42,479 nucleotides of DNA from sequence record SRR31156797_4835; one strand, given 5' to 3'. Below are positions 5,151 to 42,388 of this stretch, piece after piece (the stretch's first letter is position 1; each line of letters opens with the position of its first letter). The position numbers and the translations under genes were made by a program. The notes below the pieces were generated by a model, which worked only from the letters and a program-made list of their open reading frames with translations, was not told the origin of the DNA and did no database searches.

Positions 5151-5160
5151 GATTTAAAGG

Positions 5161-12118: not shown

Positions 12119-12306
12119 TTTGTTTGATTTTTGAATTGAATGATCGTGTTTTTGAATGAATTGCGAATATAAGCCTTTTGGATTAGGTGACTGATTTTCA
12201 ACGATGGTTATTTCGTTTTAGCGTATTTTCCATAGCCCAAAAGTTAAAACCTAATATTCCCCAATCTTTTTTTTACCTTTGAGTACTTAATTAAAACCTT
12301 ATAGAT

Positions 12307-15756: not shown

Positions 15757-15807
15757 CTCCTGTGTTTTCATTGAAACAGTGCTTTTATTAAAATATATTT
15801 GAAACCT

Positions 15808-15897
15808 GCTTAGTGCAGCTTAGTGAACTTTGTGACTTAGTGGTATTGTTTTAAATTCCACCACAAAGGCATTTAGGTCACATTAGTCACACTAAGG
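15808..15897. repeat. Degenerate palindromic intergenic repeat (CTT(A/T)GTG ladder and its ACCACAAAG/CACTAAG mirror)
   Basis: Left arm cttagtg-cag-cttagtg-aa-ctttgtg-a-cttagtggt; right arm accacaaagg-catttagg-tcacattag-tcacactaagg, an imperfect reverse complement. Confidence 0.7.
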
Positions 15898-15942
15898 CCA
15901 AATTACCTGAAAACAGCTAATTTTTGAAGGAATCATGGGCTT

Positions 15943-16023
15943 TGCAATTTCAAAGTTGGAGCCATGTAATTTCAAAGTTAAAGCCATGTAATTTCAAAGT
16001 TGGGAGCTTGTAATTTCAAAGTT
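15943..16023 (+). repeat. Direct repeat array, 22-bp period, about 3.7 copies, core TGYAATTTCAAAGTT
   Basis: tgcaatttcaaagttggagcca / tgtaatttcaaagttaaagcca / tgtaatttcaaagttgggagct / tgtaatttcaaagtt. Confidence 0.95.
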
Positions 16024-16028
16024 ATTGT

Positions 16029-16036
16029 TATATTTG
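16029..16036 (+). promoter_or_regulatory. -7 promoter element (TATATTTG) of the AAA/DUF4143 gene
   Basis: TAnnTTTG 5 nt after the last repeat and 20 nt before the ATG at 16057. Confidence 0.65.
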
Positions 16037-16056
16037 CAGTCTTTAAAAGACTGTAA

Positions 16057-17214
16057 ATGATAGTAAAAAGAACAATCAGACATGAAATTGGTAAGTACCT
16101 GACAAAGTTCCCTGTACTTGCTGTTACCGGACCCAGGCAATCCGGAAAAACAACCCTTCTAAAAAGTGTTTTGCCGGACTATCGGTATGTGAGTTTGGAA
16201 AATCCTGATATGCGGGATTTTGCAACAAATGATCCCAATGGATTTTTAAACGAGTACGACGATAAAGTAATTTTAGATGAAGTTCAGCAAGCCCCTAAAC
16301 TGTTTTCATACATTCAAACCATTGTAGATGAGCAAAAGCAAATGGGACAATTCATCCTTTCAGGCTCACAGAATTTTCATTTGATGGACCGTATAACACA
16401 AAGCCTGGCAGGCCGGCTAGCCATGTTCAAGCTATTCCCCTTTGATTTTGATGAACTTAAAGCTGTCGGGTTATTGGAGGATGATTTTCTGAAAGCAATG
16501 ATAAAAGGATTTTATCCCGCCATATTCGACCGCGAAATACCGTCGGGGAAATATTACCGGAATTATATCCAAACATACATACAGCGGGATGTTAGTGGCC
16601 TGATGGCTATTAAAGATATGCGCCAATTCAGGAATTTTTTGGCGCTGTGTGCTGACCGGTCCGGGCAATTATTAAACCTCAATGCCCTTGCAAAAGATTG
16701 TGGCATAAGCCAGCCAACAGCAAAATCCTGGCTGTCAATTCTCGAAAGCAGCTATATTATTTTCCTGCTGCACCCTTACTATGTAAATTTCAGTAAGCGG
16801 GTTATTAAATCCCCAAAATTATATTTCTACGACACAGGTTTGCTTTCACATCTCCTAAACTTTAGCAATCCCGACCAATTAATCAGTCACACCAAAAAGG
16901 GAAACTTGTTCGAAAACCTAATGATAGCAGAAACAATTAAAAATATGCACCACCAGGATTCTGATGCCGAAATATGGTTTTGGAGAGATTCGGCAGGCCA
17001 TGAAATCGATTTGATTGTGGACGACAGGCAATCCATGAAACTGTGTGAAATTAAAGCTACACAAACCATTATGACGGGTATGTTTAAGGAACTCAATTAT
17101 TTTGAAGAAATATCAGGAAAGCCGAAACTAAAAAAAATAGTTATCTATGCAGGCGATGAAAACCAGAACAGAAGCAATGGAAAAGTTGTTTCGTGGAAGA
17201 GTTTTCAGGCATAA
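16057..17214 (+). CDS. AAA_14 ATPase with DUF4143 (HTH plus PD-(D/E)xK-like) C-terminus
   Basis: Walker A GPRQSGKTT, Walker B ILDEVQ, SLAGR, KSPKLYFYDTGL, GNLFEN, WRDSAGHEIDLIV...EIK. Confidence 0.92.
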   Translation: MIVKRTIRHEIGKYLTKFPVLAVTGPRQSGKTTLLKSVLPDYRYVSLENPDMRDFATNDPNGFLNEYDDKVILDEVQQAPKLFSYIQTIVDEQKQMGQFILSGSQNFHLMDRITQSLAGRLAMFKLFPFDFDELKAVGLLEDDFLKAMIKGFYPAIFDREIPSGKYYRNYIQTYIQRDVSGLMAIKDMRQFRNFLALCADRSGQLLNLNALAKDCGISQPTAKSWLSILESSYIIFLLHPYYVNFSKRVIKSPKLYFYDTGLLSHLLNFSNPDQLISHTKKGNLFENLMIAETIKNMHHQDSDAEIWFWRDSAGHEIDLIVDDRQSMKLCEIKATQTIMTGMFKELNYFEEISGKPKLKKIVIYAGDENQNRSNGKVVSWKSFQA

Positions 17215-17284
17215 ATTAACCCAAAACATCTACATTTGAAGCTATTAGACTTCAATTTAATTGACACAAAGGAAACACAACAAT

Positions 17285-18955
17285 ATGAAAATCAAAACAT
17301 TTACCAGGCTATTTTCAATCGCTATAATTCTAACAGGGCTGGCGGTAAGCAACAGCACCCATTCACAAACCGTGGTTCAATGGTACACCTCCATGGGGGA
17401 TTTCAGGGCGCAGCTCCGGGAGGATTTGGTGCCCATGACGGCACAGAATTTTATCGACCTCACCAATGCCAATTTTTATGATGGATTGATTTTTCACAGG
17501 GTGATCAGCGGATTTATGATCCAGGATGGTTGCCCTTACGGCAATGGTACCGGAGGCCCGGGCTATACCTTTGATGATGAATTCCACCCTGACCTGCGTC
17601 ATGACGAACCCGGCATTTTATCCATGGCCAATTCAGGTCCGAATACCAATGGTTCACAATATTTTATCACGGTGGCTCCCACTGAGTGGCTGGATGATGT
17701 ACATTCGATTTTTGGGAAAATCATCGATGGTATGGAGGTGGTTTACGCCATAAGCGAAGTGCCAACAGATGGAAATGATAAGCCCCTGGTCGATGTGGTA
17801 ATCGACAGTATCAGGGTCGTTACAGGCGATGCACAACTGGCACTGACAGCACCAACCGGAGACACAAAATGGAATTCAGCCGTTGAAAATGAAATTACCT
17901 GGGATAGTGAGTTTGTTGCAGATGTAAAAATTGAGTTTTCTTCGGACAATGGCCAAACCTGGTCTGATGTCGTAGAGTCAGGCTCCGCAAATACCCGCGC
18001 CTATTCATGGAACCCGCCAAATATCACCTCCGAAGAATGCCTTATTAAAATCAGCGATGTGGCCAATCCGGATGTTTTCGACATCAACGATGAGCCTTTT
18101 ACACTTTGCCAACTGGAACTCACGAACCCTTCCGGCTTTACCTATGCACGGGTTGGTTCGCCTTTTGAAGTATCATGGACCAGTGAATTTGTGGATGAAA
18201 TATCGCTGCACTATAAAACCTCTGTTAATGGTGAATGGGTTTTAATTGATGAAGGCATACCCGCTGAAAATGGCTCTTTCATCTGGACGCCTGAGGTTGC
18301 TGCCCAATGGTGCAAAATCCTGATCTCGGAAACCAACTATCCCGAGGTGTATGATGAAACCAACAACTTTTTTATCGTCTTCAGCCTGGATATTGCCTCC
18401 CCAACCGGAGGCGAAAACCTTGAGGGAAACAGCATCCACGAAATTACCTGGGATCATGAAATCATCACTTCAGTGAGGATTGAGTTTTCACCGGACAACC
18501 AGCAAAGCTGGACCACAGTGGTAAACAGCACATCGGCCAATGCCGGAAGTTACGAATGGACAGTGCCGAACATCAGCTCCAGCAATTGCTTCCTGAAACT
18601 AACCATTCCAAATATTCCAGATTTATATTCCATTAACCAAAATCCATTTTCGATTACTGAGGTTGTCGGGGTTGATGATCGAGAAAAATCCATTGAAACC
18701 GGCTTTCAGCTTTCACCAAATCCAGTGATCGATGAGATTATTTTATCTTTTAACAACACCCACCTTTGGAATGGGAATTTAAATGTTGAAATAAGAAATC
18801 TGGAGGGCAAGTTGGTACTTAGCCAAAACATGGGAATAATTGAAGGTGATAACTCTACGAAAACCATTCAATTGGGTGACCTGCCTCAAGGATTGTATGT
18901 GTTAAGGGTATCTTCAGAAAAGGGAAATTCGGTATCGAAGTTTGTGAAGCATTAG
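17285..18955 (+). CDS. Secreted cyclophilin-type peptidyl-prolyl isomerase with Ig-like repeats and T9SS CTD
   Basis: Signal peptide from ATG 17285; FYDGLIFHRVISGFMIQDG, LSMANSGPNTNGSQYFIT; three ITW...IEFS.DN...W repeats; LSPNP...KFVKH. TACATTTG at 17231-17238. Confidence 0.9.
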   Translation: MKIKTFTRLFSIAIILTGLAVSNSTHSQTVVQWYTSMGDFRAQLREDLVPMTAQNFIDLTNANFYDGLIFHRVISGFMIQDGCPYGNGTGGPGYTFDDEFHPDLRHDEPGILSMANSGPNTNGSQYFITVAPTEWLDDVHSIFGKIIDGMEVVYAISEVPTDGNDKPLVDVVIDSIRVVTGDAQLALTAPTGDTKWNSAVENEITWDSEFVADVKIEFSSDNGQTWSDVVESGSANTRAYSWNPPNITSEECLIKISDVANPDVFDINDEPFTLCQLELTNPSGFTYARVGSPFEVSWTSEFVDEISLHYKTSVNGEWVLIDEGIPAENGSFIWTPEVAAQWCKILISETNYPEVYDETNNFFIVFSLDIASPTGGENLEGNSIHEITWDHEIITSVRIEFSPDNQQSWTTVVNSTSANAGSYEWTVPNISSSNCFLKLTIPNIPDLYSINQNPFSITEVVGVDDREKSIETGFQLSPNPVIDEIILSFNNTHLWNGNLNVEIRNLEGKLVLSQNMGIIEGDNSTKTIQLGDLPQGLYVLRVSSEKGNSVSKFVKH

Positions 18956-29672: not shown

Positions 29673-31064
29673 ATGAAGATTAAATACCTCGACTTGATAG
29701 AACAAACCTTCGATTTTCCCCAGGAGGAATTTCAGGTTGAAGATGGCGAACTTCTATTCCACGATATCCCATTAATGGAAATTGTTAAGCAATATGGCAC
29801 ACCGGTAAAACTCACGTATCTGCCAGAAATCAGTAAACAAATTCAAAAAGCAAAACGGTTGTTCAACGTGGCAATGGCCAAGGTAGATTACGAGGGCGAT
29901 TACAAGTATTGCTATTGTACCAAGAGTTCGCACTTTTCATTTGTGTTGGAGGAGGCTTTGAAAAATAACATTAACATCGAAACTTCTTCAGCTTTTGATA
30001 TAAACATTGTAGAGGATTTGTACCTGAATGGATTAATCAACAAAGACATCTATATCATTTGCAATGGATTTAAACGCCCCCAGTATCTTGAAAATATCAC
30101 AAGAATCATCAATGAAGGGTTCAAAAATGTGATACCCGTGCTGGACAACATGGATGAACTTTCCTACTACGAGGAACACATTAAGGGTAAATTCAAGGTA
30201 GGTATGCGTATTGCTTCAGAGGAAGAACCCATGTTCTCGTTCTACACTTCACGATTGGGTATCCGGTATAATGATCTTGTTCCTTTTTATAATGAGCGCA
30301 TTAAGAAAAACCCGAATATTCAGCTTAAAATGCTGCACTTTTTTATCAACACCGGGATAAAGGATACTGCATACTACTGGAGTGAACTGAGCAAAAGCCT
30401 CAATGTGTATGTAGACCTAAAAAAGATTTGTCCGGATGTGGATGCACTGAATATCGGGGGTGGCTTCCCGATAAAGCGTTCGCTGGGATTTGAATACGAT
30501 TACGAATACATGGCCGAGGAGATTATTGCCCAGATTAAACTCACCTGCGAGCAAAACAACATTAAGGAGCCAGATATTTTTACGGAGTTCGGATCGTTTA
30601 CGGTAGGCGAAAGCGGAGCAGCCATTTATTCGGTTCTTAACCAAAAACGGCAAAATGACCGTGAGCTTTGGAACATGATCGACAGTTCCTTCATGACTAC
30701 CCTTCCGGATTCATGGGCCATCAACCAAAGATTTATCCTGTTGCCGATCAACCGCTGGGAAGATCCATACCAGCGCGTATTTATGGGTGGACTCACCTGC
30801 GACAGCCAGGATTATTACAACGATGAGGCACATTCAAACGCAGTGTTTCTACCCAAATTTGAACAGGATAAACCCTTATTCATCGGGTTTTTCCATACCG
30901 GCGCTTACCAGGAATCGCTGGGTGGATATGGCGGCATCCAGCACTGCCTTATCCCCGCACCCAAGCATATCATCATCGACAAGGATGAAAACGGAGACTG
31001 GTATCCCAGGCTTTTTGCAAAGGAACAAAGTTTTAAGTCGATGCTGAAAACGCTGGGGTATTAA
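29673..31064 (+). CDS. speA: Arginine decarboxylase (Bacteroidota short form, fold type III PLP)
   Basis: YCYCTKSSH (PLP Lys), ICNGFK, NIGGGFP, FTEFGSFTV, LTCDS, GAYQ; start at ATG 29673 downstream of TACATTTG (29627-29634). Confidence 0.85.
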   Translation: MKIKYLDLIEQTFDFPQEEFQVEDGELLFHDIPLMEIVKQYGTPVKLTYLPEISKQIQKAKRLFNVAMAKVDYEGDYKYCYCTKSSHFSFVLEEALKNNINIETSSAFDINIVEDLYLNGLINKDIYIICNGFKRPQYLENITRIINEGFKNVIPVLDNMDELSYYEEHIKGKFKVGMRIASEEEPMFSFYTSRLGIRYNDLVPFYNERIKKNPNIQLKMLHFFINTGIKDTAYYWSELSKSLNVYVDLKKICPDVDALNIGGGFPIKRSLGFEYDYEYMAEEIIAQIKLTCEQNNIKEPDIFTEFGSFTVGESGAAIYSVLNQKRQNDRELWNMIDSSFMTTLPDSWAINQRFILLPINRWEDPYQRVFMGGLTCDSQDYYNDEAHSNAVFLPKFEQDKPLFIGFFHTGAYQESLGGYGGIQHCLIPAPKHIIIDKDENGDWYPRLFAKEQSFKSMLKTLGY

Positions 31065-31222
31065 AATGTGCTGACTTGCAAATCGCGATTTGATTTATCA
31101 AAATATTTCATGATTGACACCCAATGCCGCTGATATAGCGGCGGACATACTCATAGGAATGTCAATTCTACAATAAATAATTCGGCCTCTTCTCACCTGA
31201 ATTAGGCTCGCTCCCTAAAAAA

Positions 31223-31329
31223 GTGTTGAGCTTTTATACACTGTTGCGTTTTTAAACAACATCAGGCAATGCCTTTGTAAATCGCCCTTTCAGGGGTTTT
31301 GTGAATTATAGTGTATAATTTCTCAACAC
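31223..31329. promoter_or_regulatory. Three TGT-N11-ACA sites: probable enhancer for a sigma54 activator
   Basis: tgttgagcttttataca (31224-31240), tgttgcgtttttaaaca (31242-31258), tgtataatttctcaaca (31312-31328); sites 1 and 3 are near-perfect reverse complements. Confidence 0.65.
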
Positions 31330-31405
31330 ATTAACAATCTGCGCCCATTACCCATTTTTATCGTATAGCGCTGTCTATAAGCGTTTTATATGCGTGAATT
31401 TATTT

Positions 31406-31420
31406 TGGTATTGAAATTGA
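31406..31420 (+). promoter_or_regulatory. sigma54-type -24/-12 promoter
   Basis: TGG-tattgaaa-TTGA has the TGG-N8-TTG spacing, lies 61 nt upstream of ATG 31482, and the operon encodes a GAFTGA activator. Confidence 0.6.
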
Positions 31421-31481
31421 GAAGGCACTATCCGACCAATATGCATCTCGAATTTATTATCACATCAAAAAATAAAATGTT

Positions 31482-33167
31482 ATGAAAAATTTAATTTCAT
31501 TTTTTACAGGATGCCTGGTGTTTTACCTGGTAAATATTGCCCTGGCAGGATCGGCTGATGTAAAACCTGAAGCCGTAAACGCTGAAATACTGCTGTATAG
31601 CACCCCCGAAATGGCCACCCTGGCACAAACCTGGGCGGATAACTATCAAAATGTATTTGATGATGTTATCGTACATACGAAAATAATAACTCCCGAAAAT
31701 ACCGGGATGCCGGTTTTTAAGGAAACTGACGTTGCGCTTTTAACAGGACAGGAAATCGACCGGCTGACCGATGCTTCGTATCTTAAATTTGTTGTTGGGC
31801 GGGACGTTATTGTACCTGTAATCAATTCAGAAAATCCGTTCTCAGCCTTGATCAGAAATACGGGTTTCACGCCTCAATATCTTCAGGAATTGTTTTCAAA
31901 ACAGAGCGAAACAAACTGGGGTATGCTGGGTGAGTCCGGGAAAAACCTACCGCTGAACATCTATTTGCCAAATGATGAAACTGTTCAATTTGCTGTTGCA
32001 GAATTTTTGGGTGTTCCCTTTTCAGAACTTACCCGGGAATCAGCTACCGGCGGAATCTCAGCAAAAATACAGGCCGACAAATATGGTTTGGGATGGTGCA
32101 TGCTTTCTGAAGTTTTAGACTCAAAAACCGGTAACCTGATTGAAGGGATTCAGTTGCTTCCGATAGATAGAAATGGAAACGGCGAAATACATCACTTTGA
32201 GAATATTTATAGCGGAATGTATGACTTTAACCGTGGGGTTTGGATTGGAAAATATCCCCACGATCTTATAACCAATATTTATATTGTGATACCTGAAGCC
32301 GGATTATATGGCGATGGCGCCGGCTTTGTGAAATGGGCTGTAACCGATGGACAAGAAGCATTGGCCTCACTTGGCCATAACCCCATGTTGGGCATCGAAA
32401 AAACCGATGTACTTGATGTGATGGCCCTGCCGGGAAACCTTACCAGTGATTCAGGGGGTCGCCTTTCTTCAATAGCGATCGTTCTGTTAATCATTGGTGG
32501 TATAATTCTATTGATCATTGGGGTTGCAACAATATTCAGCTACACAGGAAACGCTGCCATAGCCGCAATAAACAACAGCGAAACACCTGGCGGATACATC
32601 GATGAAAACAGGTTGTCGCTCCCGGGAGGCCTTTATTTTGACAAAACCCATATGTGGGCCTTTATGGAAAAAGAGGGCAGCCTCCGGGTTGGTGTTGATG
32701 ACTTCCTACAACATGTTACCGGCTCATTTTCACGCGTGATCATGAAAAAGAAAGGTCAAAAAATCAAAAAAAATGAACACCTCATCACCTTAATCAGAGA
32801 TGGCAAGCAAATCGATCTCTATTCCCCGGTGTCAGGAACTGTTGTTGACAGCAACCGGTCCATTGCCGAATCTCCTGAACTGATTAATACATCACCATAC
32901 AACGACGGCTGGTTATATATAATCGAACCCTCAAACTGGCTTCGTGAAATTAGTTTTATGCACATGGCTGAAAAACACCTGGAATGGCTAAAATCAGAGT
33001 TTGAAAGGTTGAAAGACTTTTTGGCTTCCAGACTGCATACGGGCAACAACATTGCCAATGAGTTGGTGCTTCAGGAGGGTGGTATGCTCAAGGACCATGT
33101 TCTGGAAGATCTGGACCCTGAAATTTGGGAAGACTTCCAGAAGTGCTTTATCGACAGACCCATTTAA
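31482..33167 (+). CDS. Fusion protein: signal peptide + PstS-like periplasmic binding domain + TM helix + GcvH-like domain
   Basis: GRDVIVPVINSENP and GKYP..L..NIY resemble PBP_like/PstS; TM IAIVLLIIGGIILLIIGVATIF; YFDKTHMW, RVGVDDF, LYSPVSGTVV..N, LINTSPYNDGWL are H-protein motifs. Confidence 0.8.
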   Translation: MKNLISFFTGCLVFYLVNIALAGSADVKPEAVNAEILLYSTPEMATLAQTWADNYQNVFDDVIVHTKIITPENTGMPVFKETDVALLTGQEIDRLTDASYLKFVVGRDVIVPVINSENPFSALIRNTGFTPQYLQELFSKQSETNWGMLGESGKNLPLNIYLPNDETVQFAVAEFLGVPFSELTRESATGGISAKIQADKYGLGWCMLSEVLDSKTGNLIEGIQLLPIDRNGNGEIHHFENIYSGMYDFNRGVWIGKYPHDLITNIYIVIPEAGLYGDGAGFVKWAVTDGQEALASLGHNPMLGIEKTDVLDVMALPGNLTSDSGGRLSSIAIVLLIIGGIILLIIGVATIFSYTGNAAIAAINNSETPGGYIDENRLSLPGGLYFDKTHMWAFMEKEGSLRVGVDDFLQHVTGSFSRVIMKKKGQKIKKNEHLITLIRDGKQIDLYSPVSGTVVDSNRSIAESPELINTSPYNDGWLYIIEPSNWLREISFMHMAEKHLEWLKSEFERLKDFLASRLHTGNNIANELVLQEGGMLKDHVLEDLDPEIWEDFQKCFIDRPI

Positions 33168-33216
33168 CTGAAATTAGTGTTCAAATCAATAAACCAGATT
33201 CAAAATTCATTGAGAT

Positions 33217-34083
33217 ATGAAAATTGACAGAAGAAATTTTTTCAGGGTAGTCGGTGTAACCGGTGCGTCACTGGCTCTGAACGAAAAATTAAATGCCGCT
33301 CCTGAAAATGAATTGGAAGATGATCCTTACGGATTGCTTATCGATTCATTTATGTGTGGTGGCTGCCAGAGTTGTGAGTTTGCCTGTGCTGAAACACACG
33401 GCTTTGCAGAACCCGTAGAGGAACCACAGGTTGGGGTAATTAGAAAAACAGACCATACCCGCCGAACAGTTGTTAATGCTTTTGAAACATCAGAAGGCCA
33501 GGTAACCATAAAAAAACAATGTATGCATTGCATTGATCCGGCTTGCGTTTCGGCATGCCTCACCAAGGCCATGTATAAAACTCCGGAAGGGCCTGTCATC
33601 TGGCGGGAAGATAAGTGTATGGGTTGCAGATACTGCATGATATCCTGTCCGTTTGACGTTCCAAAATTTGAGTATAACAGCCCAAACCCCAGGATTATAA
33701 AATGCGACATGTGCTACGATCGCATCAAAGAAGGGAAAATACCGGCATGTGCAGAAATATGCCCTGCCGATGCAATTGTGTTTGGCAAAAGAAGCGAATT
33801 ACGTAAAGAAGCGCGCAACCGCATATCGGAATTCCCGGAATTTTACCGTGATTATATCTACGGAGAAACCGAAGCTGGTGGTGCCGGAGTGATCTATATC
33901 GGACAGGTACCATTCGATGAAGTAGGATTTAAAACAGGGTTGGAGAAAAATTCCTATCCGTCCCTCTCCAAGGGATTCCTTTACAGTGTGCCTTTTGTGT
34001 TTGTGCTGTGGCCACCGCTGCTATTGGGAATTCATGAAGCAACAAAGAATAATCAAACCAAAAATCCGGACGAAGATGAATAA
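33217..34083 (+). CDS. Tat-exported 4x[4Fe-4S] ferredoxin-type subunit (HybA/HmcB-like) with C-terminal membrane anchor
   Basis: DRRNFF Tat motif; CGGCQSCEFAC, CMHCIDPACVSAC, CMGCRYCMISCP, CDMC...CAEICP; YIYGETEAGG; hydrophobic C-terminal segment. Confidence 0.9.
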   Translation: MKIDRRNFFRVVGVTGASLALNEKLNAAPENELEDDPYGLLIDSFMCGGCQSCEFACAETHGFAEPVEEPQVGVIRKTDHTRRTVVNAFETSEGQVTIKKQCMHCIDPACVSACLTKAMYKTPEGPVIWREDKCMGCRYCMISCPFDVPKFEYNSPNPRIIKCDMCYDRIKEGKIPACAEICPADAIVFGKRSELRKEARNRISEFPEFYRDYIYGETEAGGAGVIYIGQVPFDEVGFKTGLEKNSYPSLSKGFLYSVPFVFVLWPPLLLGIHEATKNNQTKNPDEDE

Positions 34084-35308
34084 TACAAGCCAGTACACAT
34101 TATCAAAACACGGTAACGGCAAGAACATGTGGAAATTTCTTGTTGCCGAACTAAAGCCAAAAGGTAAACTATTCACACCTTTCAACATTATTTCCATTCC
34201 GATTATACTAACAGGCCTGGTGCTCATTGTTATCCGTTTCTGGAAGGGAATTGGAGCGGTAACAAACCTGACCCAGGATGTTCCCTGGGGCCTCTGGATC
34301 GGATTTGACGTGGTAACAGGTGTAGCATTTGCCGGTGGCGCTTATGTCATCACCTTCATGGTGTATATTCTGAATATGAAAAAATACCATTCCATTGTCC
34401 GGGTAACCGTACTTAACGGATTCCTGGCCTATGTTTTTTATGCCGGAGCACTGCTGCTCGATTTGGGCCGTCCGTGGAATGTGATCAATCCAATTATTGG
34501 GAACAGTTTTGGTACAAGCTCGGTATTATTTCTCGTCGCCTGGCATTTTCTGCTTTATATGATCGCACAGCTAATTGAATTTTCACCGGCCATTGCCGAG
34601 TGGCTGGGGGCCCGGCGAGCACATCGTATACTTTCGGGCATGACCCTGGCAGCCGTAATATTCGGCATCACGCTGTCAACACTCCACCAATCCGGGCTTG
34701 GCGCGTTGTACCTTATGGCCAAAGAAAAAATCCATCCACTTTGGTATTCGGAGTTTATTCCCATCCTGTTTTTTGTGTCCAGCATCTTCGCGGGTCTTTC
34801 CATGGTAATTTTCGAAGGCTCTATCAGCAGTAAAGTTTTCTCAGATCAGATCAGCGAAAAAAACCACCGGTCGCACCGTAGGATCATACACGGTTTAAGT
34901 AAAATCTGTGCAGGTACGCTTTTCGCCTATTTCTTTCTGCAGGTTGTAGTATTCGTACACGGCCAGCACTGGAACCTGTTGAATACCCCAATGGGATACT
35001 GGTACCTCACTGAAATGTTGGGATTCGTTGCACTTCCCACATTATTATTTGTGCTTGGGTATAAACAAAATAGTGTAATTATCATCAAAATTGCATCCAT
35101 CCTAACCATTTTAGGGATAATCATCAACCGGCTCAACATTACTGTTATCGGGTTCAGGTGGGATGCTGCAACACCCTATGTTCCATCATGGATGGAAATT
35201 GTAGTTACCCTCACGGTGATCTTTACCGAGATATGGATTTTCAGGTGGGTAATTAACCGCATGCCTGTACTCCGCGAATCTCCGTCCTGGGCAAAACATA
35301 ATTCATAA
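34076..35308 (+). CDS. NrfD/PsrC-family integral membrane protein (HybB/HmcC-like)
   Basis: PWGLWIGFDV..GVA.AGG, LDLGRPWN, STLHQSGLGAL, Y.PSWME; about 10 TM helices; ATG 34076 overlaps the upstream gene by 8 nt. Confidence 0.9.
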   Translation: MNNTSQYTLSKHGNGKNMWKFLVAELKPKGKLFTPFNIISIPIILTGLVLIVIRFWKGIGAVTNLTQDVPWGLWIGFDVVTGVAFAGGAYVITFMVYILNMKKYHSIVRVTVLNGFLAYVFYAGALLLDLGRPWNVINPIIGNSFGTSSVLFLVAWHFLLYMIAQLIEFSPAIAEWLGARRAHRILSGMTLAAVIFGITLSTLHQSGLGALYLMAKEKIHPLWYSEFIPILFFVSSIFAGLSMVIFEGSISSKVFSDQISEKNHRSHRRIIHGLSKICAGTLFAYFFLQVVVFVHGQHWNLLNTPMGYWYLTEMLGFVALPTLLFVLGYKQNSVIIIKIASILTILGIIINRLNITVIGFRWDAATPYVPSWMEIVVTLTVIFTEIWIFRWVINRMPVLRESPSWAKHNS

Positions 35309-35338
35309 ACTTTTTGTAAAAATTAAATTTATTATATC

Positions 35339-36049
35339 ATGAACCAAATAATTTATACCGGCCTGTTTGAAACCAAAGGCATAGAATATATCATCGTCAT
35401 TGCCTTCCTGGTGGTTCTCATCCCATTTTGGATATACATCAGCAACAGCAAAAAAGTTGTGCAAACCATTAATCGTACCATCGACAACCTGACTCAAAAA
35501 ATCCTGAATTTGCCCCAGGGTATCTATTTCAGTAAAAATCATACCTGGGCTTTTATGGAAAAATATGGTGCTGCCAAAGTCGGGCTCAACGATTTTCTTG
35601 CTTCTATCCTCGGCAAGGTAAAGGTTAGATTGGTGAAAAACCCCGGAGACCTGGTAGAAAAAGGTGAAATCGTTGCTGAATTAGAACATGGAGACAAGCG
35701 GCTGATGATCAAATCACCATTATCGGGTACCATTGTGAAAATTAACGAAAATGTGCTTGAAAACCCGGGTTTGATCAACAGCAGTACCTATGAATCGGGG
35801 TGGCTCATTGATATAACTCCTGACCAGTGGAAAGCCGAAACCAACACGTTCCTAATGGCCGACAATGCCACCAGGTGGATACTCAATGAAGTAGACAGGT
35901 TTAAAGATTTTCTTGCTGTTACCATGGTGCGTAATAGCGCTGAACCGGAATTGATCGCCTTTCAGGAGGGTGGAGAACTGCGCAGCCGGATCTTGGACGA
36001 TCTGGATGGGAACATATGGGCAGAGTTCCAGAAATCCTTCCTCGAATAA
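35339..36049 (+). CDS. Membrane-anchored GcvH-like protein
   Basis: N-terminal FETKGIEY plus TM helix; YFSKNHTW, KVGLNDF, KSPLSGTIVKIN, YESGWL, FQEGG; clear paralogue of the C-terminal domain of 31482..33167. Confidence 0.85.
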   Translation: MNQIIYTGLFETKGIEYIIVIAFLVVLIPFWIYISNSKKVVQTINRTIDNLTQKILNLPQGIYFSKNHTWAFMEKYGAAKVGLNDFLASILGKVKVRLVKNPGDLVEKGEIVAELEHGDKRLMIKSPLSGTIVKINENVLENPGLINSSTYESGWLIDITPDQWKAETNTFLMADNATRWILNEVDRFKDFLAVTMVRNSAEPELIAFQEGGELRSRILDDLDGNIWAEFQKSFLE

Positions 36050-36155
36050 TGAAGGCCAGGATGTTGGTGTTAAAATATTTTGAATTGATTGTATTTTTTG
36101 TATTTTGCAAAACGCTGAACATCTGGCAATCCTCTCTGGAAATAGGCTAAAAAAA

Positions 36156-37826
36156 ATGAAAACTGAATGGAAAAACAGGTTTGGTGATATCAACAGGGTT
36201 ATAAAAAAATCCCTGCGCTTCCGGTCGTCCATATTTGGAAGGGTAATTGTAATTATCACCCTGCTGTCCATCTTTCTTTTTGTAAGTTTCGGGTTAATAT
36301 TCCGATCGGTTTATGAAAACCATCTAAATACGGTAATTCGCCAGAACGGAAACAATATCGGATCGATTGTTGAGGGAGCCCTATACCATTCGATGCTGAA
36401 AAATGACAAGGGAGCATTGCAAAACACACTGGACATCATCAATACCCTGCCCAACATTGATGAGCTCAATTTGTATGACAACAAAGACAGCCTTGTGTAT
36501 TCGTCCTATTCATTCGATACTCCCGATCACGGTGATCCGGACTGTAAAAGCTGTCATGCAGATATACACACCATGTTCCCGGCCAGGGAAAAATCATACC
36601 GCCTTATCAGCAATGCCAGTGTGTGTAACATGTCTGTTGGTGCCACAGAAGAATCATTCAGACAGTTGATGATCCGTTCACCCATTTTTAATGAAAAATC
36701 TTGTTACACCGCGTCTTGCCATGCCCACAGCAAATCAGAAGAAGTGTTGGGATCGCTGATCATCAAAATACCACTCCGGGAATTAGACACTGCAGTATCA
36801 AAATCTTCAACGGAATTTTTCCTGCTTGCAGCCCTGAGTACTTTTTTACTGGTGCTTGTACTGATATTTTTTACACGCCGAAATATCAAGGAACCGCTCA
36901 AGGCCATCATCACTGCCAGCGAGGCTGTTGCGAAAGGCAACAGGGAAATGCGCCTCGACATTAAACCAAATCTGCTTGACGACATGCGCCTGGTTTCGGT
37001 AGCGTTCAACAATATGCTTGACAACCTGCAACAGGCTAACAAAGAGCTCCGTAACTGGTCGCAACAGCTTGAATACAAAGTTCAAAAAAAATCTGAAGAA
37101 CTCTCTGAAATACAGAATGAGCTGATTCACGTGGAACGGATTGCGTCACTGGGAAAGCTGTCTTCATCTGTTGCCCATGAAATCAATAATCCATTGTCCG
37201 GCGTTCTCACTTACTCCAAACTGGTCCACAAACAACTCGAAAAACTGGAGGTAAATTTTAATTCCAAACAATCGATGCTGAAATACCTGACAGTGATCGA
37301 AAATGAAACCAAAAGATGCGGCGATATTGTGAAGGGCCTGCTGGATTTTTCGCGCAAGGACCAGCAAAATTTCGAATATAAACATCTGCATGCCATACTG
37401 CAGGACACCTTTACACTCATGGCACACCAAATGAAGATTTCGGATATTAATTTTTATACTGATTTAAAAGCAGATGATGACCTGATAAACTGCAATGAAA
37501 ACCAGGTTAAACAAGCCTGTGTGGCCATCCTGGTAAATTCGAGTGAGGCAACAGGCAGTGGTGGAGAAGTGGTCATTCACACCGAAAATCCCGATCCTGA
37601 ACATGTAAGGATGAATATTTCAGATACCGGAATAGGTATCTCCGGGGAAGATATGCAGCATATTTTCGAACCGTTTTTTTCGGCCAAGAAAAAAACCAAC
37701 GGTATCGGGCTGGGACTGGCCATCGTTCACGGGATTATTCAAAGTCACAAAGGAAAAATCGACATACAATCCGAAGTGAATAAAGGAACTACCCTGTCGA
37801 TAACATTACCATTGGGTAAAAAATAA
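36156..37826 (+). CDS. HAMP sensor histidine kinase with periplasmic c-type heme-binding motifs
   Basis: Two TM helices flank CKSCH and CYTASCH; HAMP; H-box VAHEINNPL; DTGIG, GIGLGL. Start placed at ATG 36156. Confidence 0.9.
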   Translation: MKTEWKNRFGDINRVIKKSLRFRSSIFGRVIVIITLLSIFLFVSFGLIFRSVYENHLNTVIRQNGNNIGSIVEGALYHSMLKNDKGALQNTLDIINTLPNIDELNLYDNKDSLVYSSYSFDTPDHGDPDCKSCHADIHTMFPAREKSYRLISNASVCNMSVGATEESFRQLMIRSPIFNEKSCYTASCHAHSKSEEVLGSLIIKIPLRELDTAVSKSSTEFFLLAALSTFLLVLVLIFFTRRNIKEPLKAIITASEAVAKGNREMRLDIKPNLLDDMRLVSVAFNNMLDNLQQANKELRNWSQQLEYKVQKKSEELSEIQNELIHVERIASLGKLSSSVAHEINNPLSGVLTYSKLVHKQLEKLEVNFNSKQSMLKYLTVIENETKRCGDIVKGLLDFSRKDQQNFEYKHLHAILQDTFTLMAHQMKISDINFYTDLKADDDLINCNENQVKQACVAILVNSSEATGSGGEVVIHTENPDPEHVRMNISDTGIGISGEDMQHIFEPFFSAKKKTNGIGLGLAIVHGIIQSHKGKIDIQSEVNKGTTLSITLPLGKK

Positions 37827-37835
37827 ACGTATACC

Positions 37836-39182
37836 ATGACCAAAAAAATTTCGCTATTGATTGTTGATGATGAAGAATCTGTAAGGGACTCGCTTAACAA
37901 CTGGTTTATTGAAGATGGGTATGATGTGGCCTGTGCTGCCAACGCCAAAGATGCACTTTCGATGCTCAAGGCCAAAAACTACGACATCATCCTGGCGGAT
38001 ATAAAAATGCCAGGGATGGACGGCATCGAGATGAACAAACGTATAAAAGCGCTGAACCAGGATGCAATCGTTATTATCATGACTGCCTTTGCCTCGGTGG
38101 AAACCGCCGTGCAGGCGCTCAAAGACGGTGCTTACGACTACGTAACAAAACCTTTCGACCCCGATGACCTGTCGCACCTTATCCGCAACGCTTCAAGCCA
38201 TATTACCCTGCAGGCTGAAAATGAAGCCCTGAAAAACAAAGTGATCACACTGGAAAACATCGATGACATTATCGGCACCAGTAAACAGATGGTTAATGTA
38301 CTTAAGGAAGTGGAAAATGTTGCCCAGTCAAACTCTTCGGTAATCATCACCGGTGAAAGCGGGACCGGAAAGGAACTCATTGCCAGGGCTATCCATTCCA
38401 ACTCACCCCGAAAATATTTTCCGATGGTTTCAGTCCATTGCGGAGCTTTATCAGAAAACCTGCTCGAGAGTGAGCTTTTCGGTCATGAGAAAGGTGCCTT
38501 CACAGGCGCCATGTTTAATCGTAAAGGCCGGTTTGAGATGGCCGATGGTGGCACCATTTTTCTTGATGAAATCGCCACAGTTTCTTCGAAAATGCAGGTT
38601 GAACTGCTACGGGTTCTCGAAACCAAAAGCTTTGTTAGGGTTGGTGGTAACAAGGAAATCACTTCCGATTTCAGGGTGATTTGCGCCACAAACCGCGACC
38701 TGAAAAAGCTGGTGGACAATGGAACCTTCCGCGAAGACCTCTACTATCGCCTTAATGTGGTCAACATCCGGATTCCTCCGCTCAGAGAGCGCCCCGAGGA
38801 TATTCCGATGCTGGCACAACATTTCGTGAAAAAATACTGCACCTCCATGAGCCGCGACACCATCACCATCGAAGGGGCAGCACTCAAAAGGCTTGAGTCA
38901 TACGATTTTCCCGGTAATGTACGAGAGCTGGAAAACATGATCGAGCGGGCCATTGTGGTTGGTAACGGAAAAGAAATTCGTTTGGGTGACCTGCCACTTG
39001 GCAAGGACAGCATCAGTGCTGCTTACGAAAGCCTTGAAGACCTCGAGAAAAAGTACATTCTCGAAGTACTCAACAACAACGACTGGAACATCTCCCGGTC
39101 GGCAAGGATCCTTAAGGTTGACCGTGTTACCCTCTACAACAAAATCAAAAAACACAGACTGGAATCGCAACAAGTAAGCTAA
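37836..39182 (+). CDS. sigma54-dependent NtrC/AtoC-family response regulator
   Basis: Receiver (IVDDE, ADIKMPGMDG), GESGTGKE, ESELFGHEKGAFTGA, FLDEI, FREDLYYRLNV, PGNVRELEN, Fis-type HTH. Confidence 0.96.
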   Translation: MTKKISLLIVDDEESVRDSLNNWFIEDGYDVACAANAKDALSMLKAKNYDIILADIKMPGMDGIEMNKRIKALNQDAIVIIMTAFASVETAVQALKDGAYDYVTKPFDPDDLSHLIRNASSHITLQAENEALKNKVITLENIDDIIGTSKQMVNVLKEVENVAQSNSSVIITGESGTGKELIARAIHSNSPRKYFPMVSVHCGALSENLLESELFGHEKGAFTGAMFNRKGRFEMADGGTIFLDEIATVSSKMQVELLRVLETKSFVRVGGNKEITSDFRVICATNRDLKKLVDNGTFREDLYYRLNVVNIRIPPLRERPEDIPMLAQHFVKKYCTSMSRDTITIEGAALKRLESYDFPGNVRELENMIERAIVVGNGKEIRLGDLPLGKDSISAAYESLEDLEKKYILEVLNNNDWNISRSARILKVDRVTLYNKIKKHRLESQQVS

Positions 39183-39235
39183 ACACTTGTTGTTTCCAAC
39201 AAATGAAATTAAGAAGCCAGAAAAGGTGAACGATA

Positions 39236-39766
39236 TTGGAACCGCAAAAAATAGTATTGATTTATCACGGCCCGTTTGAGCAGCATTGTCTCAACACCAT
39301 CGTTTCGGATATCCGGCAGATATACGGATTCCCGGTTGAGATGAGAAAATGCCACACCGACATCAGCGCTTTTTTTGATCCGGTCAGGCGACAATACAAC
39401 GCCAATAAGCTCCTGAATTATATAAAATCAAAACCTGACGGCAATACACTAAAAACCGTTGGTTTATTTCGTGTAGACCTGTTTATACCCATTCTCACTT
39501 ATATTTTTGGCCAGGCTGTATTCAAGGGCAATGCCGGTGTCGTATCTGTTTATCGTCTGCGCAATGAACAATATGGCCTCCCACCGGATCAGCAGCTGCT
39601 TCAGGAAAGATTACGTAAGGTTGTGATTCACGAGTTGGGTCACACCTTCGGTCTGGTGCACTGCCTCAACCCCGGTTGCGTTATGCGCTCCAGCACCTAT
39701 GTGGAAGACATCGACCAGAAAAAGCTGCACCTATGCAATCAGTGCCGGGAAGCGCTGGAGGTTTAA
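39236..39766 (+). CDS. Archaemetzincin-family (M54) Zn metalloprotease
   Basis: RRQYNA, YIFGQA, HELGHTFGLVHC, CVM, LCNQC (Cys4 structural Zn); TTG start. Confidence 0.9.
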   Translation: MEPQKIVLIYHGPFEQHCLNTIVSDIRQIYGFPVEMRKCHTDISAFFDPVRRQYNANKLLNYIKSKPDGNTLKTVGLFRVDLFIPILTYIFGQAVFKGNAGVVSVYRLRNEQYGLPPDQQLLQERLRKVVIHELGHTFGLVHCLNPGCVMRSSTYVEDIDQKKLHLCNQCREALEV

Positions 39767-39803
39767 CCACGGATTACACCGATAATTTGTGGCCATCTGT
39801 GGT
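39766..39803. repeat. REP-like imperfect palindrome between convergent genes (possible bidirectional terminator)
   Basis: accacggattacaccgat-a-atttgtggccatctgtggt fills almost all of the 40-bp gap; ACCAC...GTGGT ends. Confidence 0.55.
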
Positions 39804-39806
39804 GAT

Positions 39807-41387
39807 TTATACCATCCCCCTCAAATCATCCAAAGTATTGGCCTCCTCAATCTTTTTGTCCTTCCGCCAGCGGTGGATGCGGGGAAAACGGACGGCGATG
39901 CCTGATTTGTGGCGTGATGAATTGGCGATGGCCTCGAAGTGGATTTCAAAGACGAGTTCCGGCTTAACCTGCCGCACCGGCCCGAAACGCTGGAGGGTGT
40001 TCTGGCGCACGAAGCGGTCCACTTCAATGAATTCCTTGTCGGTTAGGCCGGAATAAGCCTTGGCAAAGGTCACCAGCTCACCGTTGTCCCACAGCCCGAA
40101 AGTGTAGTCGGTGTAGAGGTTGGCGCGGCGGCCATGCCCACGCATGGCAAAGGTCAGGACAGCGTCTATGGTGTAGGGATCCACTTTCCATTTCCACCAG
40201 TCGCCCTTTTTGCGGCCCACGCCATAGGGCGAATCCTTCCTTTTGATCATCAGTCCCTCGCAGTGCAGCTCCCGTGATTTTTCGCGCTCCCCGGCCAGCT
40301 CGTGCCAGCTTTGTAACGGCACCAGCGGCGACAGCCTCAGTGCCGGTGTTTTCTGCATTTCCCTGAAAATTCCTTCCAACTTTTCCCTTCGCTTCCCAAA
40401 GGGTTCTTCCCGTATATCTTTCCTGTCAAACTCCATCAGGTCGTAGGCCATGAAAATGACCGGGGTTCTGGTCAACAGGTTTTTGGAGATGTTTTTCCGT
40501 CCAATGCGTGTTTGAAGCGCCTGGAATGACATGGGCCTGCCTTCCTTCCAGGGCATGATCTCGCCGTCCATCACCGTCCCGTCGGGCAACAGGGTTTTGA
40601 GTACCTCAAATTCGGGATATTTTTCGGTGACCAGCTCTTCGCCACGCGACCACACAAACAGTTCCCCCTTGCGGAGGATGATCTGCCCGCGGATGCCGTC
40701 CCACTTTCTTTCAGCTGACCAGTCGATGGGATCGCCGAAATCCGCCAGTTCCTGCTCCACCGGATAGGCCAGGTAAAACGGATACGGACGCGAAAGATCT
40801 TCTGTTGCACTTTTTTCAAATACAAGCTCATGGAAAGATATGTTACCCGGATCCCAATTGCCCATCAAGCGGTGCGCCAGCAGGTTTTCCTCCACCTTAG
40901 TGGCTTTGCTCAAAGCGCGTGTCATCAGCTTTTGGCTCACACCCACCCGGAATCCGCCGGTGAGTATCTTGTTGAATACAAAACGTTCGTGGCTGTCCAA
41001 AGACTTCCAAATATTTATGATGAACGATTTCTTTTCAGACTCCTCGTACTCACGAATAGAGATCAGTTGATGAATAATTTCGGTGAGTGCGTATTCCTGA
41101 CGGTGCTCAGGACCGGGAAGGATTTTGGCGATGGTTTCGGCCAGGTCGCCCACTACATGGTAGGTTTCTTCGAACAACCATGCAGGAATACCCGAGACTT
41201 CTGAAGCCCATTCCCTCAAAAGCGCTGTGTTTACTGCTCGTTTGGGGCGCCGATGTGACAACAGCGCAATAGCCCAGACTTTATCCTTATCGGAAGCCTG
41301 CCTGAAATATTCGGCCAATGCCTCGACACGTACATTGGTTTTATTGGTCTCATCCAATTGCTGAAAGAGTTGCGCAAAACGTTTCAT
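39807..41387 (-). CDS. ATP-dependent DNA ligase
   Basis: ERKWDGIR (adenylated Lys), MDGEI, YDL, EGLMIK, WWKWK, IAVRFPRI. Confidence 0.95.
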   Translation of the reverse strand: MKRFAQLFQQLDETNKTNVRVEALAEYFRQASDKDKVWAIALLSHRRPKRAVNTALLREWASEVSGIPAWLFEETYHVVGDLAETIAKILPGPEHRQEYALTEIIHQLISIREYEESEKKSFIINIWKSLDSHERFVFNKILTGGFRVGVSQKLMTRALSKATKVEENLLAHRLMGNWDPGNISFHELVFEKSATEDLSRPYPFYLAYPVEQELADFGDPIDWSAERKWDGIRGQIILRKGELFVWSRGEELVTEKYPEFEVLKTLLPDGTVMDGEIMPWKEGRPMSFQALQTRIGRKNISKNLLTRTPVIFMAYDLMEFDRKDIREEPFGKRREKLEGIFREMQKTPALRLSPLVPLQSWHELAGEREKSRELHCEGLMIKRKDSPYGVGRKKGDWWKWKVDPYTIDAVLTFAMRGHGRRANLYTDYTFGLWDNGELVTFAKAYSGLTDKEFIEVDRFVRQNTLQRFGPVRQVKPELVFEIHFEAIANSSRHKSGIAVRFPRIHRWRKDKKIEEANTLDDLRGMV

Positions 41388-42388
41388 GTGTCCTCCCCGC
41401 TTAATGTTTCCCCTTCAAAATGTGTTTTTGCAATCATGGCATTGTAACCACGGTCGCGGAGCCATTGGGAAAAAATTTCAGAGTAACCATGAGTCACGAC
41501 CACATTTTCGGCACCGGTAGCTTCGATGGCTTTGTTTAGACCCTCCCATCCGGCATGGTCGCTGACTACAAAACCGCGATCTACCGCTCTTCTCCTGCGT
41601 GTGCCACGCAGGGCCATCCATCCTGAGGCCATGGCTGTGCTGTAGGGCTGGAACTTTCGCATCCACGGCGTTCCAAGCGCTGAGGGCGGCGCCACCACCA
41701 GCTGGCCTTTGTATTCGGTTTTCGGTATTTCCTGCGTAACCAGGGTGGTTTCCGGTATGTCGATCCCCTGCGCCCGCAGGATCACATTCACATTTTCGAT
41801 GGCACCATGGGTGAAAATCTTTCCATCCACATCCGCCAGCCCTTTGATCAACCGCTGTGCCTTGCCCAGGGCATATCCTATCAAAACAGATATCTTGTCC
41901 TCACTGCGGTTTTGCATCCACCAGCTTTTGATCTGATCGAAAACAATTTCCTGATCTTCCCACCTGAAAACCGGCAATCCAAAAGTGGACTCGGTGATGA
42001 AAGTATGGCATTTAACAGGTTCGAAGGGTTGTGAAAGCCCGTCGTTTTTCAGTTTGTAGTCGCCGGAAGCCACCCAGACCTCACCGTTGTATTCCACCCT
42101 TATTTGTGAGGATCCGGGAATATGCCCGGCCGGATGAAAAGAGAATTTTACGCCATTTATAGATATGTTTTCACCATAAGCAATCTCCCTCAGATTGATC
42201 TCCCCAAGCCGTTGCCGGATGATGGGTGCAGCATCTTTCTGAGCCAGGTAATGTTTATGGCCCCAACGGGCATGATCTGCATGGCCATGCGTGATCAGGG
42301 CTTTCTGCACAGGTTTCCAGGGATCGATGAAAAGTTCGGCCTGCCGGCAGTAGATTCCTTTTTCGGTAAATTGAAGGAGGTTGGTCAT
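41384..42388 (-). CDS. Ligase-associated DNA damage response exonuclease (MBL/beta-CASP)
   Basis: ITHGHADHAR, PAGHIPGS, SGDYK, ITESTFGLP, YALGKAQR, ASGWM, SDHA, THG; ATGA overlap with the ligase. Confidence 0.92.
   Translation of the reverse strand: MTNLLQFTEKGIYCRQAELFIDPWKPVQKALITHGHADHARWGHKHYLAQKDAAPIIRQRLGEINLREIAYGENISINGVKFSFHPAGHIPGSSQIRVEYNGEVWVASGDYKLKNDGLSQPFEPVKCHTFITESTFGLPVFRWEDQEIVFDQIKSWWMQNRSEDKISVLIGYALGKAQRLIKGLADVDGKIFTHGAIENVNVILRAQGIDIPETTLVTQEIPKTEYKGQLVVAPPSALGTPWMRKFQPYSTAMASGWMALRGTRRRRAVDRGFVVSDHAGWEGLNKAIEATGAENVVVTHGYSEIFSQWLRDRGYNAMIAKTHFEGETLSGEDT

Follow-up and report, generated by a model that had tools for sequence, protein, structure and literature searches.

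We analyzed a 42,479-nucleotide stretch of DNA from sequence record SRR31156797_4835 (referred to from here on as the window) and focused on seven genes of its plus strand, A to G, which lie between positions 31482 and 39766. Our preferred reading, to which we give a little less than an even chance, is that genes A to G, which recur in a conserved order, would be a self-contained, redox-sensing quinone-module cassette of anaerobic Bacteroidota, in which regulatory and respiratory functions are encoded together. An earlier reading of the same DNA (hereafter the sequence-only reading) had claimed seven co-oriented genes at this locus, and all seven open reading frames (ORFs) are present where it placed them:

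31482..33167, plus strand: gene A, degenerate PstS-like periplasmic domain (preceded by a signal peptide or anchor and containing an EF-hand-like loop), transmembrane (TM) helix, cytoplasmic H-protein fold, and C-terminal extension
33217..34083, plus strand: gene B, HybA/HmcB-type 4x[4Fe-4S] protein, Tat-exported, with a C-terminal membrane helix
34076..35308, plus strand: gene C, NrfD-like membrane subunit of the HybB/HmcC type
35339..36049, plus strand: gene D, N-terminal peptide (FETKGxEY), TM helix, cytoplasmic H-protein fold, and C-terminal extension
36105..37826, plus strand: gene E, sensor histidine kinase (likely start, the ATG at 36156)
37836..39182, plus strand: gene F, NtrC-type response regulator/sigma-54 activator
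39236..39766, plus strand: gene G, archaemetzincin (M54) zinc protease

Conservation of the seven-gene cassette

A pattern scan with one genome per species gave 577 matches among 185,579 species genomes, and a relative of D is encoded in 395 of the 577 matched genomes. The loci were compared using the best 80 of the 395 loci with a relative of D, 58 of which extend far enough on both sides for the full gene order to be read. The order ABCDEFG was seen in 51 of these 58 long loci; conservation of the gene order, for which the sequence-only reading had proposed a neighborhood search as a check, is thus borne out. The other orders were D'BCDEFG in three loci (D' being a first H-fold gene without the periplasmic binding protein (PBP) domain) and ABCDEFGF, ABCDEF, ABCDE, and ADEFG in one locus each. 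Across the 80 loci, the median identity to the proteins of the window was 37% for A, 59% for B, 79% for C, 63% for E, 74% for F, and 54% for G. Nearly all of these loci come from Bacteroidales bins, with one labeled Fidelibacterota and one labeled Omnitrophica.

Clustering of all 1055 ORFs of the 80 loci revealed no additional family in more than seven loci. This indicates that there is no catalytic partner in cis and that the cassette is self-contained and placed in varied chromosomal settings. The genes that did recur in the flanks (Lgt, SecA, ferritin, and SurE) are housekeeping genes and were dismissed as partners. Thus, the absence of a known catalytic partner, which the sequence-only reading had pointed out at the locus, extends from the cluster to the flanks of the 80 loci. 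That reading also knew of no characterized system of such composition; our literature searches gave none either, and no published description of the cassette was found in them; a Thi4 paper in which archaemetzincin is mentioned and a Desulfovibrio transcriptome paper proved irrelevant. The accessible part of a review of the NrfD family names 14 known complex types, none of which has the composition of the cassette (PMC8076601). The parts of the cassette belong to known families, and its regulatory logic has a precedent, which we consider under Discussion.

Genes B and C as a putative quinone module

The translation of gene B contains the sequence RRNFFR, 16 cysteines in four ferredoxin-type motifs, and a hydrophobic C-terminal helix, i.e. 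the twin-arginine translocation (Tat) signal, four Cys motifs, and C-terminal anchor of HybA/HmcB-type proteins. It matched Pfam Fer4_11 (76.5 bits, E 2e-21) and is 33% identical to Escherichia coli HybA (E 8e-52), and its best NCBIfam matches were HmcB (295 bits, cut-off 420) and HybA (222.8 bits, cut-off 263). The product of gene C matched Pfam NrfD (E 5.1e-12, 46.5 bits compared with a cut-off of 25.8) and aligned to E. coli HybB along 373 residues with 28% identity (E 1e-44); in NCBIfam, it was closest to HmcC, at 407 bits with a cut-off of 550, and to HybB, at 249 bits with a cut-off of 450. Hence, neither B nor C reaches the HmcB/HybA or HmcC/HybB equivalog cut-offs. As described in the accessible part of the NrfD-family review, D58, D109, and S129 of HybB are quinone-site residues, and R89, Y99, E148, and H184 are proton-path residues, replacement of which lowers hydrogen oxidation (PMC8076601). 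The former align with D78, D129, and S149 of C and the latter with R109, Y119, E168, and H204; in a set of 30 sequences, each of these seven residues of C shows at least 90% conservation or no variation at all. The likeness to HybA/HybB and the retention of the quinone and proton residues make B and C look like a working quinone-coupled module, and we conclude that, as judged from their sequences, they are an intact HybA/HybB- or HmcB/HmcC-type pair. A complex prediction for C and D (score 0.08, mark 0.34) has no bearing either way.

With E. coli HybA/HybB, the B and C proteins share the Tat signal, the four Cys clusters, the C-terminal helix, and the seven HybB residues, but the cassette lacks HybO/HybC and the hydrogenase maturation genes and has the H-fold proteins, kinase, activator, and protease in addition; the equivalog scores are below the cut-off, and, as detailed below, three of five carrier genomes have no hydrogenase. 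Neither HybOC nor HmcA was found in the window or in the flanks of the 80 loci. In the comparison with the Desulfovibrio Hmc and Nhc systems, the best NCBIfam matches of B and C are indeed HmcB and HmcC, yet with scores below 420 and 550. Further, a version of the cassette from Ignavibacteriales (see below) contains the same trio as Nhc, i.e. a cytochrome c, an FeS protein, and an NrfD subunit, whereas the cluster in the window has no cytochrome and is found in Bacteroidota and not in sulfate reducers. Homologues of HmcD, HmcE, and HmcF, which we take to be part of the Hmc complex, are also absent from the cassette.

Possible electron partners encoded elsewhere were searched for in five carrier genomes. 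A NiFe hydrogenase is present in two of the five and a molybdopterin oxidoreductase in four, and, in at least three genomes (G001, G002, and G004), a molybdopterin gene has its own NrfD gene at a distance of 1-2 kb. This implies that neither kind of partner is obligatory, and we rejected an obligatory hydrogenase or molybdoenzyme on these grounds. Multiheme cytochrome c families are encoded outside the cassette in all five genomes, and these unlinked cytochromes c are possible partners of B and C. The genome-wide search, which the sequence-only reading had named as a further check, was therefore favorable to it with respect to hydrogenases and molybdoenzymes and unfavorable with respect to multiheme cytochromes. 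In the same vein, its description of the system as "stand-alone" is correct in that no catalytic subunit is encoded in cis, but it is too strong given the multiheme cytochromes of all five genomes and the 13-heme cytochrome beside B and C in Ignavibacteriales.

The kinase, the activator, and the sigma-54-type promoter

The kinase E consists of a TM helix, a periplasmic PAS/PDC-like domain (residues ~65-245), a second TM helix, and HAMP, HisKA, and HATPase_c domains. The CxxCH motif that the sequence-only reading had seen in this kinase is real, and the periplasmic domain contains a second motif, Cx4CH-x-H. In an alignment of 72 kinases (E of the window and 71 from the loci), C150, C200, C205, H206, and H208 are each invariant (72/72), C174 is kept in 70, and M176 is kept in 67. 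An AlphaFold2 model of the sensor (residues 36-270; predicted local distance difference test score (pLDDT) 80.1) was matched by Foldseek to the sensor domains of WalK/YycG, KinD, LuxQ, and CusS; a match to the periplasmic sensor of GSU0935 (3b42; E 1.5e-4), which we take to be a heme-c PAS domain, was weak, with TM scores of 0.28 and 0.47. At the level of motif and modeled fold, E thus has the features of a heme-c PAS sensor kinase, with two putative c-heme attachment motifs in a PAS/PDC fold, and the cytochrome c maturation protein CcsBA is encoded in all five carrier genomes. E shares with the GSU0935/GSU0582-type sensors a periplasmic PAS/PDC-like fold with CxxCH but differs from them in having two motifs (CxxCH and Cx4CH) and in being a HAMP histidine kinase and not a chemoreceptor.

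The activator F contains Response_reg, Sigma54_activat (with GAFTGA), and Fis-type helix-turn-helix (HTH_8) domains. The upstream region of gene A contains the following features:

31406..31421, plus strand: promoter-like TGGTATTGAAATTGAG (TGGTAT-N5-TTGAG, sigma-54 type), 76 nucleotides 5' of the gene A ATG
31224-31240, 31242-31258, and 31312-31328, plus strand: three TGT-N11-ACA sites, candidate binding sites for activator F

The TGG/TTG promoter and the TGT-N11-ACA sites had been proposed in the sequence-only reading, and both were located in the window and found conserved upstream of gene A homologues by phylogenetic footprinting, for which 1300 control windows were drawn from the same loci as the upstream regions. 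Of 66 regions upstream of gene A homologues, 55 contain TGGYAY-N5-TTG and 57 contain at least two TGT-N11-ACA sites; among the 1300 control windows, the counts are 36 and 30, respectively. The sites of the window lie 182, 164, and 94 nucleotides 5' of the -24 TGG, and, across the family, the distances are fixed at about 69, 93, 163, and 181 nucleotides upstream of the TGG. We conclude that, by these counts, the promoter motif and the upstream sites exceed chance. A related sequence, TGGCAC-N5-TTG, also precedes the first H-fold gene in divergent (type-2) clusters. A receiver domain, an AAA+ domain with GAFTGA, and an HTH domain in F, together with the kinase, the -24/-12 promoter, and the upstream sites, are the components of an NtrC-type sigma-54 system. 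A scan of positions 31000-40000 for sigma-70 promoters and terminators gave no more matches than were obtained with shuffled sequences. We also noted a second sigma-54-like motif, TGGCACAAATCTTGCC, about 40 nucleotides 5' of the kinase gene in three distant loci (L086, L087, and L089), which hints that E, F, and G may be autoregulated there.

The archaemetzincin G

G scored 167.3 bits with NF033823, above the cut-off of 145, and contains the motif HELGHTFGLVHC-x4-C-x-M-x16-C-x2-C intact, with its residues at least 90% conserved in 64 sequences; the profile score, HExxHxxGxxH, and the four cysteines together identify it as an archaemetzincin of family M54. The archaemetzincin motif is given as HExxHxxGxxHCx4CxM...CxxC in the accessible part of a paper that describes the biological importance of these proteases as barely known (PMC3427221). 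In comparison with AmzA and the M54 family, G has the same motif and passes the NF033823 cut-off, but the spacer is 16 and not 17 residues long, and G is fixed within a two-component operon. In most type-1 loci, and in 12 of 16 distant membrane-type regions (see below), G comes after F. The suggestion of a dedicated protease holds up in that G accompanies the kinase and the activator even at 30-55% identity.

The H-fold proteins A and D

Both A and D matched Pfam GCV_H, A over residues 384-496 (83.8 bits, E 1.2e-23) and D behind an N-terminal hydrophobic helix (85.4 bits, E 3.8e-24), and both scored below the cut-off of 117 bits with NCBIfam GcvH (NF002270; 77.2 and 77.9 bits). In an AlphaFold2 model of A (mean pLDDT 78.6), a signal helix is followed by a PstS-like domain, one long membrane helix, the H-protein domain, and two more helices; the C-terminal extension after the H fold comprises about 60 residues and is helical. 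The H-protein domain was matched by Foldseek to 1onl, 3a7l, and 3ab9 (TM scores of 0.92-0.94, root mean square deviation 1.2-1.6) and the periplasmic domain to 4jwo, 4q8r, 4gd5, and 1twy (TM scores of 0.6-0.7, 12-17% identity). Because the Pfam PBP_like_2 score of A (21.1 bits) is below the cut-off of 27, the PBP domain assigned to A in the sequence-only reading is upheld by the fold, which is of the PstS type, and not by Pfam. The anion loop of PstS (REDGSGTRDAF) aligns with PNDET-VQFAV of A, and few residues of the N-lobe are conserved. Since the SGT of this loop is not kept, a phosphate site in A is unlikely, and we rejected A as a phosphate receptor. We also noted, at residues 227-241 of A (positions 32160-32204 of the window), a perfect EF-hand-type loop, D-R-N-G-N-G-E-I-H-H-F-E. 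D229, N231, N233, and E240 are invariant in 44 homologues, in which the loop reads D-x-N-x-N-G-x-I-x3-E, and this suggests a periplasmic Ca2+ site in A.

An ungapped alignment of D with residues 378-558 of A shows 40% identity (E 8e-43) and marks D as a paralogue of A's C-terminal half. Ahead of the membrane helix of D, residues 1-17 (positions 35339-35392 of the window) include Y6, F10, T12, K13, E16, and Y17, each of which is invariant in 40 sequences; this N-terminal peptide is expected to lie on the periplasmic side of the membrane and may serve there as a point of contact with B, C, or the sensor of the kinase. In gapless phmmer alignments of D to solved H-proteins (2edg, 1dxm, and 3klr), the canonical lipoyl lysine falls on D119. 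The position is Gly in 72 of 86 D-type sequences, and, as Asp or Gly occupies it in A and D, the lipoyl-lysine motif (ESVKA) of true H-proteins is absent from both. The next residue (+1; K120 in D, corresponding to K442 in A) is Lys in 78, Arg in 5, Asn in 2, and Ile in 1 of the 86 D-type sequences, and Lys, Arg, Gly, Glu, or Thr in distant members. A profile of D detected 446 clusters (50% identity) at E<=1e-30 among 1.84 billion representatives. A search of the ESM Atlas with D gave only its own GCV_H clusters, from Bacteroidota, and a search for longer fused forms of D gave, apart from a single eukaryotic protein of no relevance, nothing but PBP fusions of the A type.

A and D thus have the fold in common with GcvH and LbpA but not the canonical lysine, and, unlike these proteins, the H folds of the cassette family are membrane-tethered or receiver-fused and carry the C-terminal extension of about 60 residues. 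No GcvP/T/L or sHdr genes are found near A and D in the window or in the flanks of the 80 loci. The sequence-only reading had taken the H-protein folds for redox (lipoyl) subunits of a complex. Against such a role stand the replacement of the canonical lysine by Asp or Gly, the variation of the +1 lysine in wider relatives, the occurrence of receiver-fused H folds, and clusters that have no B and C (L078, L081, and L086; see below). The H folds of A and D are, from these comparisons, most likely used in signaling rather than as lipoyl carriers.

Distant and variant clusters

We ran the D profile against 401 genomes sampled evenly from the same phylum. Relatives of D with 215-300 residues, besides the ordinary GcvH of about 130 residues, were found in 34 genomes, and relatives with about 390-480 residues were found in 24; two genomes have both size classes. 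Twenty distant regions were retrieved, 16 of the membrane type and 4 of the longer type. In the membrane-type regions, the order is D'-B-C-D''-E-F-G, with B and C beside the H-fold genes in 14 of 16 regions and E-F-G in 12 of 16, and with D 25-31%, B 38-46%, C 32-39%, F 54-58%, and G 36-47% identical to the proteins of the window. B and C are missing, with the H-fold pair and E, F, and G kept, from two distant loci (L081 and L086) and from one close relative (L078). The cluster of L081 faces another one that encodes a cytochrome of the NapC/NirT type, a cytochrome b whose partner has 11 hemes, and a CbcL-like fusion of 12 heme motifs with cytochrome b561, and, in locus L090, a second H-fold pair precedes a CbcL-like fusion with 13 hemes plus b561.

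In each of the four longer-type regions, B and C are accompanied by a 13-heme-motif cytochrome, a kinase with the diheme motif, and a pair of proteins (267 and 387 residues) that carry Response_reg ahead of GCV_H. The 387-residue protein has an N-terminal hydrophobic helix and aligned to D over residues 58-236, the extension included; its relatives are named "response regulator" and come from Ignavibacteriales. In this Ignavibacteriales version, the 13-heme-motif cytochrome directly follows C. The attachment of the H fold and its extension to a membrane anchor, a PBP, or a receiver implies that it behaves as a signaling module and not as a lipoyl carrier. As a separate observation, the membrane-tethered and the receiver-fused versions lie side by side in one genome (L097 and L098), which implies that cassettes duplicate and diverge in place.

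Discussion

The analysis covers gene content, conservation, motifs, and folds; from domains and synteny, we infer sensing, phosphotransfer, induction, the periplasmic partner, the role of A and D, and the substrate of G, and propose the following course of events. E would sense the redox state of the periplasm via its hemes and phosphorylate F, which, on the TGT-N11-ACA sites, would open the sigma-54 promoter so that A to D are induced. B and C would then link the menaquinone pool to periplasmic carriers and so act as an inducible electron gate, the carriers being unlinked cytochromes c here and the 13-heme cytochrome in the Ignavibacteriales version. A and D would be membrane-tethered signaling adaptors that probably tune the gate or feed back on E and F at the inner face of the membrane, as the module of about 180 residues (H fold and extension) that they contain also follows the receiver domains of Ignavibacteriales. 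G would most likely process or remove one of these signaling proteins. A bolder version of this scheme, which seems to us somewhat unlikely, is that the 180-residue module is a new signal-output or adaptor domain that couples a heme redox sensor to post-translational control of a quinone gate (HmcBC- or CbcL-like), with the archaemetzincin as its processing protease; if this is true, bacterial archaemetzincins gain their first physiological role.

Several points weigh against our preferred reading. Each of its functional steps is built on domains and synteny, and the related loci come nearly all from metagenome bins, the labels of which are partly doubtful. The H-fold genes that flank B and C would suit structural subunits equally well as regulators, and control of B and C by the kinase would be circular if B and C were needed to feed the hemes of the kinase. 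Further, the lysine at +1 is invariant in the A family (67/67), and LipA and LplA/LipB-type genes are present in all five carrier genomes, so that lipoylation of type-1 A and D is possible. The lysine beside the canonical position (found in A without exception and in D in 78 of 86 sequences), the lipoylation enzymes, the closeness of the H fold to true GcvH (TM scores of 0.92-0.94), and the flanking of B and C by H-fold genes in type-1 and type-2 clusters all favor the model of the sequence-only reading, in which A to D form one stand-alone quinone-linked complex with lipoylated H folds that carry redox equivalents or sulfur in the manner of LbpA/sHdr. We nevertheless consider this model decidedly unlikely: the gapless alignments to solved H-proteins place Asp or Gly at the canonical lysine, distant members have Arg, Gly, Glu, or other residues at the lysine position, the GcvH scores of 77-78 bits are well below the cut-off of 117, receiver domains precede the same H-fold domain, and B and C are missing from some clusters. 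Moreover, the accessible part of the NrfD-family review describes NrfD-type subunits as holding no cofactor for electron transfer to the cytoplasmic face (PMC8076601).

A different possibility is that B and C are the membrane anchor of a known enzyme encoded elsewhere (a hydrogenase, a molybdoenzyme, or a large Hmc/Nhc cytochrome) and the cluster a Hyb, Hmc, or Nhc fragment with an adjacent two-component regulator, and that A, D, and G are incidental. The cytochrome with 13 heme motifs directly 3' of C in Ignavibacteriales is Nhc/Hmc-like, the multiheme cytochromes c of all five carrier genomes could provide such an enzyme, and the best NCBIfam matches are HmcB/HmcC and HybA/HybB; every equivalog cut-off was missed, however, and A, D, and G are not incidental: they accompany B, C, E, and F at identities of 25-60%. 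As only two of the five genomes have a NiFe hydrogenase, one has no molybdopterin oxidoreductase, and the molybdopterin genes of G001, G002, and G004 lie near an NrfD gene of their own, we think this explanation unlikely. It is also conceivable that the cassette serves to sense an envelope ligand, with the PstS-like EF-hand domain of A detecting an anion or Ca2+ and signaling through the H fold to E and F, and with B and C providing redox input only. The layout of A (PBP, TM helix, cytoplasmic domain) is receptor-like, its fold matches PstS, and the EF-hand-like loop is invariant in 44 sequences, but the anion-binding SGT loop is gone, the N-lobe is poorly conserved, and 3 of 58 long type-1 loci and every type-2 or type-3 cluster examined lack the PBP domain, and we regard this explanation as very improbable.

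Returning to the redox-sensing quinone-module cassette, the closest published logic is that of BccR-CbcBA, and the resemblance is one of logic only. As described in the accessible part of the report, the sigma-54 regulator BccR of Geobacter sulfurreducens induces the membrane quinone oxidoreductase CbcBA as the potential falls, the BccR-CbcBA operon also contains a pair of hypothetical proteins, GSU0597 and GSU3489, and CbcBA-related clusters occur in Prolixibacter, Marinilabiliales, and Labilibaculum (bioRxiv 10.1101/2021.04.15.440034). Both systems have a sigma-54 response regulator and a promoter that would control an inner-membrane quinone oxidoreductase module; this module is of the FeS/NrfD type in the cassette, whereas that of Geobacter consists of a cytochrome b and a heptaheme cytochrome c. 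In agreement with this difference, a Pfam scan of the seven proteins gave no match to a cytochrome b or c family and, thus, no counterpart of CbcB (diheme b) or CbcA (heptaheme c), and the cassette has in addition the heme-motif kinase, the H-fold pair, and the archaemetzincin.

In Geobacter, as far as the accessible part of that report goes, only the sigma-54 activator of one gate is identified (bioRxiv 10.1101/2021.04.15.440034). In Bacteroidota of sediment and sludge, at least several hundred species of which have it, the cassette would join an electron gate to a candidate heme sensor and thus bears on how anaerobes sense redox potential and choose among membrane electron gates. Further, the H-protein fold, without its lipoyl lysine, is reused in response regulators, where it makes up the C-terminal domain, a use of which our literature searches found no example, and archaemetzincins gain a fixed genetic context.

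Other features of the window

The remaining window is an ordinary Bacteroidota chromosome, with GldD and type-9-secretion cargo, and a Pfam scan of it revealed no redox partner for the cassette. Three large proteins with type-9-secretion C-terminal sorting domains are encoded at 8831-18955, i.e. an M14 carboxypeptidase (GEVED and PKD domains), a Laminin_G/N-glycanase-like protein, and a cyclophilin. A second two-component pair lies on the minus strand at 4371-8058 and consists of a 965-residue kinase (Reg_prop/Y_Y_Y and His_kinase) followed by a LytTR response regulator. Also on the minus strand, at 39807-42388, the start of a gene for an ATP-dependent DNA ligase (526 residues) overlaps the gene for a metallo-beta-lactamase-fold protein (334 residues). 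The G+C content is 0.52 at 39807-42388 compared with about 0.42 elsewhere in the window, and this rise suggests that the ligase-nuclease repair pair may have been acquired.

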